From assembly GCA_965232875.1 (NCBI GenBank), contig OZ247431.1, positions 1,720,376 to 1,784,375 on the forward strand: DNA of 64,000 nucleotides, read 5' to 3'. Positions 566-62,390 of this stretch are shown here, one piece after another. Under the pieces are notes generated by a model. That model did no database searches. It was given only the letters and a program-made list of their open reading frames with translations, and was not told the origin of the DNA. Positions within the stretch are counted from its first letter, which is position 1; every line of letters begins with the position of its first letter. The DNA is from Dehalococcoidia bacterium. Its GTDB lineage: Bacteria; Chloroflexota; Dehalococcoidia; Bin125. A program made the position numbers and the translations under genes.

Positions 566-730
566 CGGGACTCAATGCTATTCACAATGCTGTCGAGATT
601 CAGCACAAAGTCCTCGTCATACCCCCGCTTGTCGCGGGTATCTCGCGTTGACCCTCATGAGGCCGATACAACTGAGACCAGGTGTGGAGACGGCTGTCGT
701 GACGCACCCAACGACTAACCAGAGTGCGGC

Positions 731-8749: not shown

Positions 8750-8785
8750 CCCTCACCCTAACCCTCTCCCAGAGGGAGAGGGGAC
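8750..8785. repeat. REP-like palindromic element CCCTCACCCTAACCCTCTCCCAGAGGGAGAGGGGAC
   Basis: Identical 36-mer recurs at 40665-40700. Contains the palindrome CCCTCTCCC-AGA-GGGAGAGGG. Translates to 'PLPEGEG' in one frame. Confidence 0.8.
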
Positions 8786-22924: not shown

Positions 22925-23030
22925 TCTCCCTCTGGGAGAGGGCTGGGGTGAGGGTTCGGCGTCTCAGAAGGCCCTCACCCGAAGCCTCTCCCTCCGGGAG
23001 AGGGGACCGGAAGGGGAGCAAGTGATTTAC
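22925..23030. repeat. Compound REP-like palindromic element downstream of amine oxidase
   Basis: CCCTCTCCCTCTGGGAGAGGG, GGGTGAGGG…CCCTCACCC, CCTCTCCCTCCGGGAGAGGGG. Confidence 0.7.
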
Positions 23031-36973: not shown

Positions 36974-38713
36974 CTAGTAGGTGCGCTCCTGGAGCGGGAA
37001 CGGTTCGCGGAACTTGGGCTCCATATTGACATCGCAGTATGTCAGGGTTGGCCCATCCTCGCCGTCCTGCGGACGGTAAGCGAGGGTGTGTTTGAACCAG
37101 TTCTCGTCGTCGCGGGAGTCAAAGTCGCGCCTGGCGTGGCCGCCACGTGACTCCTGCCGTGCGATTGCGCCGGTCACGATGACCTCGGAGTACTCCAGCA
37201 TGTGACCGAGCTCGATCGCGTCGAGCAAGTCGGTATTGAACGTCGAGCCATGGTCGTCGATCGCGATGTGCTTGAATCGCTCCTGGTATTCCTTGACCTC
37301 GGACAAACACTCGCGCAGCTCTGCGTCGTCGCGGAAGACGCCGCACTTATCCATCATCGTGTCGCGCAGCTCGGCGCGAATCTTGCCGACCTTCTCCGAG
37401 CCCTCGGCGCGGAGGAACTTGTCGACCTCACCTACGGCGTTGGCCATGTCGCCCTCGTCAATGCTGGTCGGTTCGAGGTCGTGGACGACATCAAGAATGC
37501 CGCGACCCGAGCGTCGGCCAAAGACGACTGCTTCGAGCAGCGAGTTCGTACCTAGTCGGTTGGCTCCATGGACGGAGACGCAAGATGCCTCGCCGGCGGC
37601 GAAGAATCCTGTGATCTGGGGCGCGCCGGGCTGGTCCTTGATCCGCACCTGCCCATTGATATCGCAGGGAATGCCACCCATCGAGTAATGCGCAGTCGGC
37701 TGAATCGGAACAGGCGCCTCGAGCGGGTCGATACCAGCAAAGTCCCGTGCCAGATGAAGCACCGACGGCAGGGCGTAACGGATGCGCTCCTCACCGATCG
37801 GTCGCAAGTCCATAAAGACGGAGTCGCGCAAATCGGTCACGCCCCGGCCAGCTTCAATCTCTGACTGTTCAGCGCGGGCGACGATGTCGCGCGGCGCGAG
37901 CTCCATTCTGCCGGGGGCGTAGTTCTCCATGAAGCGGAAGCCGTCCGAGTTGACGATATGCGCGCCCTCGCCGCGTGCCGCCTCGGAGAGCAGGATGCCC
38001 GAGCCCTGCAGGCCGGTCGGGTGGAACTGAACAAATTCCATATCCTCCAGAGGAATACCAGCGCGGTAGGCCATCACGACGCCGTCGCCGGTGGATGCGA
38101 ACGCGTTGGTGGTCACGCGGAACGCGCGACCATAGCCGCCGGTGCCGAACATGACGGCCTTGGCCGAGATGGCCTCAATCTGGCCTGAGAGAATGTCGTA
38201 GGCAACCAGGCCCTGGCAAACGTTGTCCTTAACGACGAGGTCAAGCGCGTACCACTCGGAGTAGACCTTGACCCCGCGTCGCAGGAGCTGTTCGAACAGC
38301 ACAGTCAGGACGGCGTGCCCGGTACGGTCGGCGGCGTAGCAGGCGCGCGGCGCCGTGTGTCCGCCGAAGCGGCGCTGGGCGACACGGCCTTCGTCGTCGC
38401 GCGAGAACGCGCAGCCCATGTGCTCAAGTTCGAAGATGTTCTCGGGGCCTTCGCGAGTCAGGACTTCGGCGGCGTCCTGGTCGACGAGGTAGTCGCCACC
38501 CTTGACAGTGTCGAACATGTGCAGGTCCCATGAGTCCTCGGCGGAGTTGCCGAGCGATGCCGCGATGCCGCCCTGCGCCGCGCCCGAATGTGAGCGCAAG
38601 GGATGCACCTTGGAGAGGATCGCCACGTCCAGGGTTGGATCGTTGGAGACCTCCAGGGCGGCGCGCATACCCGCCAGTCCTGAGCCGACAATCAATACGT
38701 CATGTTGCAACAT
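36974..38713 (-). CDS. sdhA: Succinate dehydrogenase/fumarate reductase flavoprotein subunit
   Basis: [18 protein letters not shown]-binding N-terminus. Typical SdhA/FrdA body. Confidence 0.85.
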
Positions 38714-38899
38714 CGTGCTGTCTCTCCGCTCTGGATGCAATGTGCAGTTTCGCACCAAACGGCATTGGGCGGTAGTGGGAGTGAGCGGGTCCCCGCGTGA
38801 AGCGGGGACTGGGGGACTGCGGCGGGCACGGCGGGACTAGGGGTTGGGGGATCCCGTGTGAGAAAAAAACGCGGCGCGAAAAAAAGACGGGTTGGGGGA

Positions 38900-39217
38900 T
38901 TACCAGGGGTCGTCGTCCTCTTCGAGCGGGTCTTCCTCCTGGAGCAGCAGCAGGCTGGGCGCAGGTTCCCGCGTGAAGCGGGAAGTGGAAGCGCCTTCGG
39001 GGGTGTCGTAGAGGTCGCGGAGCTTGTGGCGGGCGACGTCGTAGGGGTCGGTGGTCAGGTAGAGTTGGTGGTTGAGACGGGCTTGGGGGTTGGTGGGGGC
39101 GAAGAGTTCGCGGACGATGGTGTCGAGGGCTTTGACGCGGAGGTAGCCGGGGTTGTGTTCGGCGGAGCGTCGCCAGAGGCGGTCGATCCTGGCTCGGAGG
39201 TGGTAGGGGTTGGGCAT
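38900..39217 (-). CDS. Hypothetical 105-aa protein upstream of sdhA
   Basis: Intact ORF, AT-richer, acidic C-terminal tail. No recognisable family. Confidence 0.3.
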   Translation of the reverse strand: MPNPYHLRARIDRLWRRSAEHNPGYLRVKALDTIVRELFAPTNPQARLNHQLYLTTDPYDVARHKLRDLYDTPEGASTSRFTREPAPSLLLLQEEDPLEEDDDPW

Positions 39218-39290
39218 GGGGTGTCCTTTGGGGTTTGGGTAGTATGTATGTTCTGAATATATCAGAGTTGGGTGTGACCAGGTTGTCGGG

Positions 39291-39916
39291 GGGAGATCGC
39301 GTGGCGTCGGCTGGGGGACGGCTGGCGAGTGTCCGTTGATGGGCTTGGATGGTTCGTGATTCCTGCCTACGCAGGAATGACGGAGGGGAGATCGCGTGGC
39401 GGCGGCTGGGGAACGGCTGGCGAGCGTCGCCGTTGATGGGCTTGGATGGTTCGTGATTCCTGCCTACGCAGGAATGACGGAGGGAGGCCAGGAATGACGG
39501 AGGGGAGATCGCGTGGCGGCGGCTGGGGGACGGCTGGCGAGCGTCGCCGTTGATGGGCTTGGATGGTTCGTGATTCCTGCCTACGCAGGAATGACGGAGG
39601 GAGGCCGGGAATGACGGAAGGGAGATCGCGTGGCGGCGGCTGGGGGACGGCTGGCGAGCGTCGCCGTTGATGGGTTTGGATGGTTCGTGATTCCTGCCTA
39701 CGCAGGAATGACGGAGGGAGGGCAGGAGTGACGGGAGGGGAGGGCGGGAATGACGGAGGGGAGATCGCGTGGCGGCGGCTGGGGGACGGCTGGCGAGCGT
39801 CGCCGTTGATGGGCTTGGGTGGTTCGTGATTCCTGCCTATGCAAGGAATGACGGAGGGAGGGCAGGAATGACGGAGGGAGGGCGGGAATGACGGAGGGAG
39901 GGCAGGGAGCGGCGGG
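39291..39916. repeat. Nested tandem repeat array: 5 copies of an about 95-97-bp unit, followed by 0,1,1,2,3 copies of a 20-bp sub-repeat GGAGGGCAGGAATGACGGAG
   Basis: Unit GGGAGATCGCGTGGCGGCGGCTGGGGGACGGCTGGCGAGCGTCGCCGTTGATGGGCTTGGATGGTTCGTGATTCCTGCCTACGCAGGAATGACGGAG. Each unit ends in the hairpin ATTCCTGC-CTAC-GCAGGAAT. No ORF of 60 aa or more in any frame. Confidence 0.85.
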
Positions 39917-40068
39917 CGCTGGGTCTGAGGGTAGCTGGGTGGGGTTGTGGTTGGATGTGCGGGGTGGTGCAGCCGGGGAGCCCCTCCTTCAGCCCCCGTT
40001 CAAGCCGGGGGCAGGCTCTTCGGCAGCTTCCCCCGCAAGGGGAGGGGCGAGGGGATTGGAGGGGGTTG

Positions 40069-40671
40069 TTACTCCTGGCCTCGGTAGTGACGGACGATTT
40101 TGCGTCCCAGCGGACCGACCGCTTCGAGTGCCAGGTACTGGATCAAGATGACCGATTTGGCGTCAATGATCTCGCCTGCTTCGACGCGTTCAATCGCCTC
40201 GCCGAGCGGCATCCACTCGACGATCAGTTCCTCATCTTCGTCGGCCTGGAGTGGCGCTTCCACGCAGTCGCGGGCAATGAATCCATGCAGGAATTCATTG
40301 GCGAAGCCGGGGGCGACGTAGAACCCTCGAGCGAAATCAAGCCGGGCCGGATCGAGACCCACTTCCTCTCGCAGCTCGCGGCGCGCAGTCTCGGTGGGCG
40401 ACTCTCCTGGATCGACGCGGCCCGCCGGTAGTTCGAGCAAGGGCCGACCCGTGGCGTGTCGCCACTGACGCACGAATGCGATATTGCCATCCTCTCGGAG
40501 CGCGAGGATGACGACCGCATCGGGATGCTCGACGACTTCTCGCCGAGTCTTGCGACCGTCGGCCATTTCGACGTCGTCGACGCGCACTTTAATTCTGGAG
40601 CCGTCGAACACCTGCTTCGATTCGAGCACGGTCTCGGTGAGGGAGTCGAGCGGGTTGGCCATTGCCCTCAC
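40069..40671 (-). CDS. NUDIX hydrolase (ADP-ribose pyrophosphatase-like)
   Basis: Nudix box …GRVDPGESPTETARRELREEVGL…. Confidence 0.8.
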   Translation of the reverse strand: MRAMANPLDSLTETVLESKQVFDGSRIKVRVDDVEMADGRKTRREVVEHPDAVVILALREDGNIAFVRQWRHATGRPLLELPAGRVDPGESPTETARRELREEVGLDPARLDFARGFYVAPGFANEFLHGFIARDCVEAPLQADEDEELIVEWMPLGEAIERVEAGEIIDAKSVILIQYLALEAVGPLGRKIVRHYRGQE

Positions 40672-40700
40672 CCTAACCCTCTCCCAGAGGGAGAGGGGAC
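40665..40700. repeat. REP-like palindromic element, identical 36-mer to 8750-8785
   Basis: CCCTCACCCTAACCCTCTCCCAGAGGGAGAGGGGAC. Confidence 0.8.
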
Positions 40701-55689: not shown

Positions 55690-55900
55690 CAGCCTTCGGC
55701 AGCTCCTCCTTGCAAGAGACCGATGCATAACTCCCCTTCTCCCCCTTGCGGGGGAGATGCCCCCTGCCTACGCAGGGGCAGGCTCCGGCAGAGGGGGGTT
55801 CCCTGCCTCTTAGCCCTATCTGGTCGTCGCCAGCCGCCTCCCTCTGTCACTCTGTGACATCTCCCCCCGCAAGGGGGGAGAGGGGAATCGGAGGATATGC
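55690..55900. repeat. Cluster of G-rich palindromic REP-like elements
   Basis: CCCCCTTGCGGGGGAG, CTGCCTACGCAGGGGCAGG, CCCCCCGCAAGGGGGGAGAGGGG. Shares the CTCAGCCTTCGGCAGCTCC core with 8610-8630. Confidence 0.7.
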
Positions 55901-58895: not shown

Positions 58896-59066
58896 GTCTG
58901 GCGGAGGCTCAAGTGCATCACTCGCGTCGGAGGACAGCCGCACCCTCTCGGCCTTCGGTAGCTTCTCCCGCATGAAGACCGTTGCCACAGCCTCCATTCC
59001 GTCATTGCCGCGCTTCGTCGCGGCAATCTCGCCACGTCCAGTACGAACGTCTTTGCTCGATTCTGC

Positions 59067-59100
59067 GAGATACCCGCGACAAGCGCGGGTATGACGAGAC
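59067..59100. repeat. Hairpin element GAGATACCCGCG-ACAA-GCGCGGGTATGACGAGA
   Basis: Compensatory T->A / A->T changes in the two stem arms relative to the 731 copy keep the pairing. Confidence 0.75.
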
Positions 59101-62101: not shown

Positions 62102-62355
62102 CGCCTGAACGGCCGCCCATCAACCGCTGCTGCCCGACGCCATCGGAGCGCGGAGCTTTTCTGATCGCTTAGCGAACTGTATCCCGCTTATGTCGGTTCA
62201 GCATAGGTATCAGCGTCGTTGTAATCAGCCAACCAGTGTCCGTGGAGGTCAACAAAGCGGATCGGGTGGCTCGAAGGCCACTTATGGAGAATTCCCTCAT
62301 ATCCGCGCTCCGCCGCTGACTTCTTCACGATTCCAACGTTCGTTTACCACGCTTC

Positions 62356-62390
62356 GAGATTCCCGCGTCGGAGCGCGGGAATGACGGAAG
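62356..62390. repeat. Hairpin element GAGATTCCCGCG-TCGGAG-CGCGGGAATGACGGAAG
   Basis: Same stem as the 731 copy with a different loop. 16 bp downstream of the yajC stop. Confidence 0.75.

Follow-up and report, generated by a model that had tools for sequence, protein, structure and literature searches.

We analysed a 64,000-nt stretch of the genome of a Dehalococcoidia bacterium (Chloroflexota; contig OZ247431.1, positions 1,720,376 to 1,784,375; hereafter the window), in which one intergenic region carries a nested tandem array of hairpin-bearing repeat units related to the DNA motifs of Ssn nucleases. The array lies between a gene for a NUDIX hydrolase and the sdh operon (Table 1), as stated in an original prediction made from the letters alone, which had missed a conserved 105-amino-acid gene, ORF105, in front of sdhA. 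That prediction of five near-identical tandem units, each with a hairpin and free of open reading frames (ORFs), was borne out: the five head-to-tail units are 95–157 bp long, and the longest ORFs within the array reach 40–49 aa.

Tandem Repeats Finder resolved nested repeats whose periods are 20, 97, 117 and 139 bp (92–96% matches). Each unit is composed of a G-rich segment of about 70 nt (RS), a hairpin and, in all but the first unit, one or more 20-bp sub-repeats. The 20-nt hairpin ATTCCTGCCTACGCAGGAAT, a palindrome of the form ATTCCTGC-CTAC-GCAGGAAT, is exact in units 1–4; within the window this exact sequence is confined to the array, and shuffled sequences lead one to expect 0.00 matches. 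In unit 5 the hairpin is damaged by one substitution and one inserted base (ATTCCTGCCTATGCAAGGAAT). The sequence GGCAGGAATGACGGAG occurs nine times at up to two mismatches, against 0.03 expected. Units 1–5 carry 0, 1, 1, 2 and 2 intact sub-repeats, the last unit with one additional degenerate copy (GAGGGCAGGGAGCGGCGGG); in the predicted series 0, 1, 1, 2, 3 the first four counts are thus right, and the final 3 includes one decayed copy. Hairpins follow each other in steps of 97, 117, 117 and 139–140 bp, leaving 77–120 bp between successive 20-bp hairpins, a stretch made up of the RS segment, the tag of the hairpin and zero to two sub-repeats. The cores of the interior units 2–4 differ by 1–2 nt and those of the edge units by 4–8; units 2 and 3 have a GAGGCC-type sub-repeat in common, and units 4 and 5 an ordered pair of an A-type and a G-type sub-repeat. 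A CRISPR array, which the original prediction had already discounted, was rejected because the segments between the hairpins are themselves repeated (92–96%); no CRISPR family in Rfam reached threshold. An assembly artefact, with repeats expanded or collapsed, was also considered. Tandem repeats are error-prone, and a short-read contig of a relative (L166) breaks exactly at the array, but each unit has private substitutions, the two sub-repeat types follow an ordered pattern, and like architecture is present in the independent assemblies L034, L121, L126, L127, L130, L168 and L082. We therefore found no evidence for an artefact and regard one as extremely improbable; the copy number of five is given as assembled.

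Table 1. Features of the array and its surroundings, in window coordinates (RS, G-rich segment; NTS, the motif bound by Ssn; REP, repetitive extragenic palindrome).
Feature	Position	Strand	Description
Array	39292–39916		Five head-to-tail units
Unit 1	39292–39386	−	95 bp; nearest the likely ORF105 promoter; RS segment and NTS-like hairpin, no sub-repeat; edge unit, among the two most diverged
Unit 2	39387–39503	−	117 bp; 97-bp core and one GAGGCC-type 20-bp sub-repeat (39484–39503)
Unit 3	39504–39620	−	117 bp; 97-bp core and one GAGGCC-type sub-repeat (39601–39620); 3 differences over 117 nt from unit 2
Unit 4	39621–39759	−	139 bp; 97-bp core and two GAGGGC-type sub-repeats (39718–39759; A-variant, then G-variant)
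Unit 5	39760–39916	−	157 bp; distal edge; 98-bp core with damaged hairpin; sub-repeats 39858–39877 and 39878–39897, degenerate sub-repeat 39898–39916
NTS-like motif CGTCATTCCTGCGTAGGCAGGAATCACG	39355–39382	−	Copies at 39452–39479, 39569–39596 and 39686–39713; damaged copy at 39825–39853
ORF105	38900–39217	−	105 aa; small protein of a multi-copy Chloroflexota family; between array and sdhA
Motif AGAACATACATAC	39242–39254	−	About 25–35 nt upstream of the ORF105 start, array upstream of it; from sequence comparison
Spacer	39917–40068		From array to NUDIX stop codon; contains the unrelated REP-like palindrome CTCTTCGGCAGCTTCCCCCGCAAGGGG at 40016–40042
NUDIX hydrolase gene (PF00293)	40069–40671	−	Upstream of the array

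The informative strand of the array, which the original prediction had overlooked, is the minus strand, also the sense strand of all flanking genes. Read on this strand, the hairpin at the end of each unit is CCGTC-ATTCCTGC-GTAG-GCAGGAAT-CACG, comprising a CGTC tag, an 8-bp stem that starts with AT, a 4-nt loop and a C directly past the palindrome; in the sub-family of the window, the CGT of the tag can pair with the ACG of the tail. The CGTC-1 family of REPs is defined by a CGTC tag, an 8-bp AT-initiated stem, a 4-nt loop and a short tail, and the Neisseria repeat dRS3 is assigned to it (Di Nocera et al. 2013, PMC3733652). Tag (CGTC), stem (ATTCCTGC and GCAGGAAT) and loop (GTAG) of our hairpin agree with this definition. 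The NTS of Neisseria, CGTCATTCCCGCGMAVGCGGGAATCYRG, contains dRS3 (Chenal et al. 2025, Nat Commun 16:2388, PMC11893778). The array motif shares 24 of 28 positions with NTS and so does not match the consensus, from which it departs by a compensatory stem pair (C>T / G>A), by loop position 2 and by a tail CACG in place of CYRG. Likewise, whereas Neisseria dRS3 reads ATTCCC-N8-GGGAAT, the repeat in the window reads ATTCCT-N8-AGGAAT and is not dRS3 itself. SsnA of Neisseria needs three nucleotides before the palindrome for cutting and a C after it for binding (PMC11893778), and all five copies have GTC just 5' and C just 3' of the palindrome (CCGTC-ATTCCTGC...GCAGGAAT-C). By these features the hairpin classifies as a CGTC-tagged REP of family CGTC-1 and as a compensatory-stem variant of Neisseria dRS3/NTS.

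This variant is widespread. Scanning one genome per species for ATTCCTGC-N4-GCAGGAATGACGG matched at least 120 loci across many phyla, including many Dehalococcoidia/SAR202 and sponge-derived metagenome-assembled genomes (MAGs); as a pattern for a genome-wide census of this hairpin type we propose CGTCATTCCTGC-N4-GCAGGAATC. Metagenomes were scanned with a junction specific to the sub-family of the window. The RS segment plus hairpin recurs as a single or paired unit at non-syntenic loci (L122–L128, L130 and also L034), and one contig carrying it comes from the Aplysina aerophoba sponge metagenome MKWU. Dispersed copies of the unit are present on several contigs of related metagenomes; in the window, the motif is confined to the array.

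Ssn proteins are a family of site-specific single-stranded-DNA nucleases. They bind NTS solely as single-stranded DNA (ssDNA) and solely on one strand, bind neither RNA nor double-stranded DNA, and cut a few nucleotides 5' of the motif with its CGTC; ssnA itself is encoded in an NTS-ssnA-NTS arrangement resembling an insertion sequence, and in N. meningitidis Ssn reduces transformation by NTS-containing DNA (PMC11893778). An unbiased clustering of every ORF with 100 aa or more in 130 loci (120 hairpin loci and 10 metagenome loci, with 157 hairpins) recovered a GIY-YIG protein of about 96 aa (PF01541) in four unrelated organisms. The gene has a hairpin on both sides within 31–110 nt in all four loci (L075, L082, L089 and L130), and in three of them the two copies are inverted, with their CGTC tags pointing outward. 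At these loci and at a further one, L168, the flanking hairpins are the ATTCCTGC variant, as in the window. These single-domain genes resemble the cd10448-type ssn of Chenal et al., the basis here being the PF01541 match. The commonest recurrent neighbours, CoA-transferase III, SDR and ABC ATPase, are generic families and were rejected as irrelevant.

Searching from the protein side yielded at least 8000 Ssn homologues at E ≤ 1e-5. Among 26 loci picked via the protein alone, five had a strict AT-stem tagged hairpin on both sides of the gene, against a background of 0.017 per kb, and nearly all others had, by eye, related (C/T)GTCAT palindromes beside it. Many of the homologues sit on contigs of 0.5–2 kb, as expected if the repeated gene and its motifs break short-read assemblies. 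A separate observation concerns L089 (2333–2763), where ssn and, next to it, a truncated second copy of the gene are each followed by a hairpin, so that gene and motif can also duplicate in tandem.

Two of the ssn loci have arrays of their own. In L168, a locus of the closest relative MAG (GCA_026713765.1), ssn is preceded by CCGTC-ATTCCTGC-GCAG-GCAGGAAT-CACGAACC, with the CACGAACC-tail variant on both flanks, and two tandem 136-bp units, each with RS, hairpin and one half-site sub-repeat, directly follow the ssn stop codon. In L082, from Thermodesulfobacteriota, arrays of 113-bp units stand on either side of ssn (5.0 and 3.9 copies), and after them comes a 26-bp half-site tract with 4.4 copies. 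Nested architecture is therefore a recurrent property of Ssn-motif arrays. An Ssn clade matching the window variant is present in three related genomes: OZ244071, which is the genome of L034 with a homologous four-unit array, OZ242281, and MAG GCA_026713765.1, which also carries the nearest relative of ORF105. Elsewhere in Thermodesulfobacteriota, on chromosome OZ245366 (L061, 1–3625), a separate 435-bp tandem repeat (8.3 copies, 82% matches) stands beside a 113-bp hairpin array, together with an open frame of 1674 codons from stop to stop.

Compared at the sequence level, elements of the array type are the terminal parts or solitary derivatives of small NTS-ssn-NTS modules with a gene for the predicted GIY-YIG nuclease of about 96 aa. 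The pairing of gene and motif, recovered here from the loci, had already been published as the Ssn/SRM system (Chenal et al. 2025), SRM being the motif class defined there; the putative membership of the array in this system rests on the anatomy of its motif and on gene linkage in relatives. A classical REP/BIME cluster mobilised by a RAYT, a tyrosine transposase of IS200/IS605 type, would likewise be a clustered, palindromic, extragenic repeat, and GTAG is present in our hairpin, but only as its loop. The terminal tag is CGTC rather than GTAG, no RAYT has been linked to CGTC repeats, for which no dedicated enzyme was found (PMC3733652), and no transposase family recurs among the ORF clusters near the 157 hairpins, although no RAYT profile search of the window was made. 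We give such a cluster hardly any credence.

Several observations weigh against assigning the array to the Ssn system. CGTC-1 REPs have an unpaired tag and an unpaired 3-nt tail near CCA, and TGG/CCA is the tail in most of the 157 hairpin copies from other genomes, whereas in the window tag and tail, CAC(G), can pair with each other. All five hairpins fall outside the published SRM pattern, HGTCWYN(0-2)YYVSBRHN(0-5)WNVSBRGN(0-2)RNCYNB, at three positions, which comprise the stem pair C:G changed to T:A and the tail CACG in place of CYRG; array hairpins fit once these three are relaxed. Altering the sequence of the palindrome while keeping the hairpin abolishes activity of the Neisseria enzyme (PMC11893778), and therefore a cognate enzyme would be required for the variant in the window. 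Finally, hmmsearch found no ssn gene in the 64-kb window, and among the matches listed there is no close Ssn homologue on the 3,327,587-bp contig that encodes a protein identical to ORF105.

These last two results also fit an orphan minisatellite, that is, units of Ssn-element descent drifting neutrally after the matching nuclease was lost from the genome. Decay of the hairpin and of the last sub-repeat in unit 5 points the same way, as does the report that 19% of SRM-rich genomes are without an Ssn homologue (PMC11893778). However, the hairpin is perfect in every unit but the fifth and the interior units are near-identical, so the duplications are recent, and the matching Ssn clade is encoded by the closest relative MAG and by two other Dehalococcoidia genomes with the hairpin. 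We therefore consider the orphan minisatellite unlikely, if one to be taken seriously. Probably, the array is a five-copy cluster of a dispersed non-coding element of about 95 bp, consisting of RS and an Ssn-related hairpin, which derives from NTS-ssn-NTS modules and has grown by block duplication. Given the literature data on Ssn, a minus strand of the array that is exposed in replication or repair, or that enters as incoming DNA, would offer five putative Ssn sites. The original suggestion of a protein-binding array would hold to the extent that the hairpin belongs to a family bound and cut by Ssn GIY-YIG nucleases, with binding expected to ssDNA on one strand only. By analogy with Neisseria, from which alone it is inferred, there could be a cellular effect on recombination or DNA uptake around the flanking genes; the array may equally be a neutral remnant.

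The comparison of copy number suggested in the original prediction gave 1, 2 or 5 units across homologous loci. One unit with only a degenerate sub-repeat is found at 96.1% identity to the window (L167), one unit with one sub-repeat at 90.6% (L129 and L162–L165), and two units at about 80% (L121); a short-read contig with 95.4% identity over ORF105-sdhA-sdhB ends inside the array (L166). The block that recurs in relatives consists of the unit or units, the promoter-like motif and ORF105, and ORF105 with its adjacent unit or units travels as one block in the window, L129 and L121. As L129/L162 have only this block in common with the window and differ in both flanks, these loci may be paralogous rather than orthologous; L166 is orthologous to the window on the sdh side. 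The distal tail of unit 5 is the tail of the single-unit loci in relatives. With one or two units in relatives and five in the window, the array therefore grew by duplication of blocks of 97, 117 and 139 bp. By this comparison, growth started with one unit bearing one or two sub-repeats, as seen in relatives, and proceeded by unequal recombination or slippage of these blocks. The simplest history suggested by the sequence comparison is one ancestral unit expanded through block duplications in different register, and by their near-identity the interior units are the youngest. The sub-repeat count does rise along the array, as the original prediction had noted in calling it incrementing, but the ramp of 0, 1, 1, 2, 3 is a by-product of nested block duplications (a 117-bp block in units 2/3 and a 139-bp block in units 4/5) and not a counter.

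Variation in copy number among relatives, together with the position of the array directly upstream of a promoter-like motif, might also suggest a contingency (phase-variation) locus, in which expression of ORF105 or the sdh operon would be switched as units or sub-repeats are rapidly gained and lost. Against this, four independent assemblies of a related strain, from different samples (L162–L165), are identical at the locus, with 99.99–100% mutual identity. Moreover, the units of 95–139 bp lie upstream of the promoter motif, neither between promoter elements nor in a reading frame, and ORF105 paralogues have promoters without arrays. Because the four assemblies are invariant, the locus fits a slowly evolving, copy-number-variable site rather than a fast contingency switch, and we judge the contingency locus put forward in the original prediction very improbable. 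The replication-slippage hotspot proposed there is supported to the extent that relatives have one or two units and the window five. As a separate observation, the same ORF105 variant (P0242) is encoded on two short-read contigs, L166 (1–181) and L167 (3772–4468). On one of them MutS2 and a 209-aa gene lie upstream and the contig stops just after ORF105, and the other runs from the array interior to sdhA. Either recombination among paralogues moved the block of unit and ORF105, or assemblies break or chimerise there.

In the window, the 20-bp sub-repeats duplicate the first half of the motif and can form alternative hairpins with its only 3' arm. Quantification across 127 hairpins of the ATTCCTGC type, drawn from Chloroflexota, Gamma- and Alphaproteobacteria, Planctomycetota and Hydrogenedentota, showed extra GGAATGAC half-sites (at most one mismatch) within 60 nt on the tag side of 30 hairpins. 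On the non-tag side this was the case for 3 of the 127, with about 2.6 expected by chance. Two or more extra half-sites were present in 13 hairpins, with a spacing peak at 17–20 nt. The reiterated piece, which lies on the side cleaved by Ssn, is exactly the first half of the motif, with the CGTC tag, the 5' arm and the sequence context of the cut. A generic detector of tagged hairpins counted 50 on the tag side versus 12 on the other among 438 hairpins of genome loci, and 5 versus 2 among 75 hairpins of the 26 protein-selected viral-contig loci, a weak difference in which three of the five are spurious. The tag-side bias is thus solid only for the ATTCCTGC variant and is not clearly reproduced by the generic detector for other variants.

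Reiteration of a half-motif on the side cut by Ssn is apparently undescribed, and split half-motifs can reconstitute a cleavable site (Chenal et al., PMC11893778). It is conceivable, though on balance doubtful, that the sub-repeats are scars of Ssn action and that the arrays grow through a nuclease-driven ratchet, in which case sub-repeat number would record past Ssn activity. In such a ratchet, Ssn would nick a few nucleotides 5' of CGTC, leaving a 5' flap whose hairpin might shield it against flap processing. Displacement synthesis and religation would then duplicate the segment of cut site, tag and 5' arm, and each new half-motif, once paired with the one 3' arm, could become the target of another cut.

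When the minus strand was folded as ssDNA, it formed five hairpins (z-score −3.3). The mutated 5' arm of unit 5 gives way to the arm of a sub-repeat, and the alternative hairpin so formed has a 23-nt loop. Regular units, each with a stable hairpin, and a fold energy better than that of shuffled sequences could also be taken to indicate structured non-coding RNA genes with one small RNA per unit, the array type named in the original prediction. However, a search of 38700–40400 gave no relevant Rfam match at E ≤ 10, only chance miRNA and snoRNA matches outside the units. RNAalifold on 18 diverged units, run for both strands, found only the invariant hairpin conserved (covariation term +0.1 to +0.2). 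No pair within that hairpin covaries, and the only compensatory pair, a weak one elsewhere in the unit, is confined to the plus-strand fold. Conservation of RS lies in patches of sequence, not in pairing, and SsnA does not bind RNA. Genes for structured RNAs are therefore scarcely credible here.

Somewhat less remote, but still quite unlikely, is a REP-type element acting in cis on RNA or transcription, as a stabiliser of the NUDIX 3' end, an attenuator or terminator, or an insulator before the promoter of ORF105 and sdh. The NTS strand being the sense strand of the flanking genes and the location of the array between the NUDIX stop codon and the motif upstream of ORF105 are in keeping with such a role, and REPs lie mostly downstream of genes and may act as RNA (Di Nocera et al., PMC3733652). 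In contrast, a scan for promoters and terminators found no such sites, nothing is conserved beyond the hairpin and there is no covariation, the ORF105 paralogues L157–L161 work without any array, and the half-site tracts and the ssn linkage would be left unexplained. Descent from NTS-ssn-NTS modules thus remains the preferred explanation of the array.

Downstream of the array, the motif AGAACATACATAC is kept upstream of ORF105 paralogues with or without an array and is therefore a likely promoter or 5' element. The ORF105 family comprises 221 homologues, all in Chloroflexota MAGs, with at least 13 paralogues on the 3,327,587-bp contig that holds the identical protein. Its members share a conserved N-terminal part of about 75 aa, a variable linker and an invariant acidic tail, EEDDDP[W/L], recalling the C-terminal tip of SSB. 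ORF105 had no match in Pfam, NCBIfam or PDB, and its AlphaFold model is poor (pLDDT 55), with four helices and a disordered tail. Genes of the family precede differing operons (sdh, RarA-like, UvrC, ChsH2/thiolase and AFOR). A REP-like palindrome, GCAGGTTCCCGCGTGAAGCGGGAAGTGG, lies in the coding region of the ORF105 linker (38961–38988), with a near copy, TCCCCGC-GTGAA-GCGGGGA, past the stop codon (38785–38812); in the alignment, the linker of many paralogues instead encodes a translated REP, 'LPPLPLGEACPALDAGGWGEG'. Repeated REP insertion seems to be tolerated by the disordered linker.

Other repeat families are present in the window. Strict SRM matches occur at 615–645 (+), 730–760 (−), 59066–59096 (−) and 62355–62386 (−). 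These four sites belong to a second hairpin family, CGTCAT[T/A]CCCGCG...CGCGGG[A/T]ATCTCG, with those at 615 and 730 an inverted pair about 115 nt apart, and the genome thus carries at least two Ssn-type motif families. The REP-like family CCCTCACCCTAACCCTCTCCCAGAGGGAGAGGGGAC is found at 8750–8785, 22972–23007 and 40665–40700, the last between the NUDIX start and the upstream gene, and has 100% identity over 40 nt to a site in another Dehalococcoidia genome (L029). A further REP-like family, CTCTTCGGCAGCTTCCCCCGCAAGGGG, is represented by the palindrome in the spacer and by copies at 55850–55876 and 58951–58977; its presence makes the intergenic region a mosaic of repeat families. GC skew is flat across the window and allowed no inference on the replication strand.

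The array bears on work beyond this locus in several ways. A compensatory hairpin variant that is widespread, with the at least 120 loci in many phyla described above, escapes the SRM search pattern as published. Orientation-specific half-motif reiteration on the side cut by Ssn provides a cheap, testable handle on nuclease effects on chromosomes in vivo. Such arrays break short-read assemblies, as in L166, and their copy-number differences between close relatives make them usable strain markers in uncultured symbionts.

The array does not reveal a new class of system; its features can be set beside four described ones. CGTC-1 REPs have a CCA tail where the window has CAC, head-to-tail arrangement as in the window is negligible among CGTC REPs according to Di Nocera et al., and the five phyla these authors list for CGTC repeats exclude Chloroflexi. 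In the Ssn system, as in the REP/BIME/REPIN-RAYT systems, a single-copy nuclease gene has its own ssDNA hairpin motif on both sides, and non-autonomous copies cluster in large numbers between genes. RAYTs are HUH tyrosine transposases with a GTAG tag, whereas the Ssn system has the GIY-YIG fold and a CGTC tag, and inverted doublets are not the unit of the window array. To the SRM/Ssn system the array is likened by an oriented hairpin with CGTC 5' of an 8-bp AT-initiated stem and C 3', by extragenic and clustered location, and by a host-associated lineage, in keeping with the enrichment in symbionts noted by Chenal et al. It differs from the SRMs of that study in a tail that pairs with the tag and in homogeneous head-to-tail duplicates with nested half-motif tracts; the words 'tandem', 'NIME' and 'Chloroflex' have zero occurrences in the main text of that paper (PMC11893778). 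In the NIME arrays of Neisseria, dRS3 alternates with RS segments of 50–150 bp and array length varies among strains, and such arrays were stated to be absent outside Neisseria (Bentley et al. 2007, PMC1797815). The window array is built in the same way, from 20-bp ATTCCN-N8-NGGAAT inverted repeats alternating with RS segments in the 50–150-bp range, in an intergenic region and with a number of copies that varies between related genomes. Whereas NIME arrays mix more than 100 RS families, the window array repeats one RS, and it belongs to Chloroflexota rather than Neisseria. Judged by its sequence anatomy, the array is a real, ORF-free and copy-number-variable Chloroflexota counterpart of the Neisseria NIME arrays, and it places in sponge-associated Chloroflexota a type of array long regarded as a peculiarity of Neisseria.

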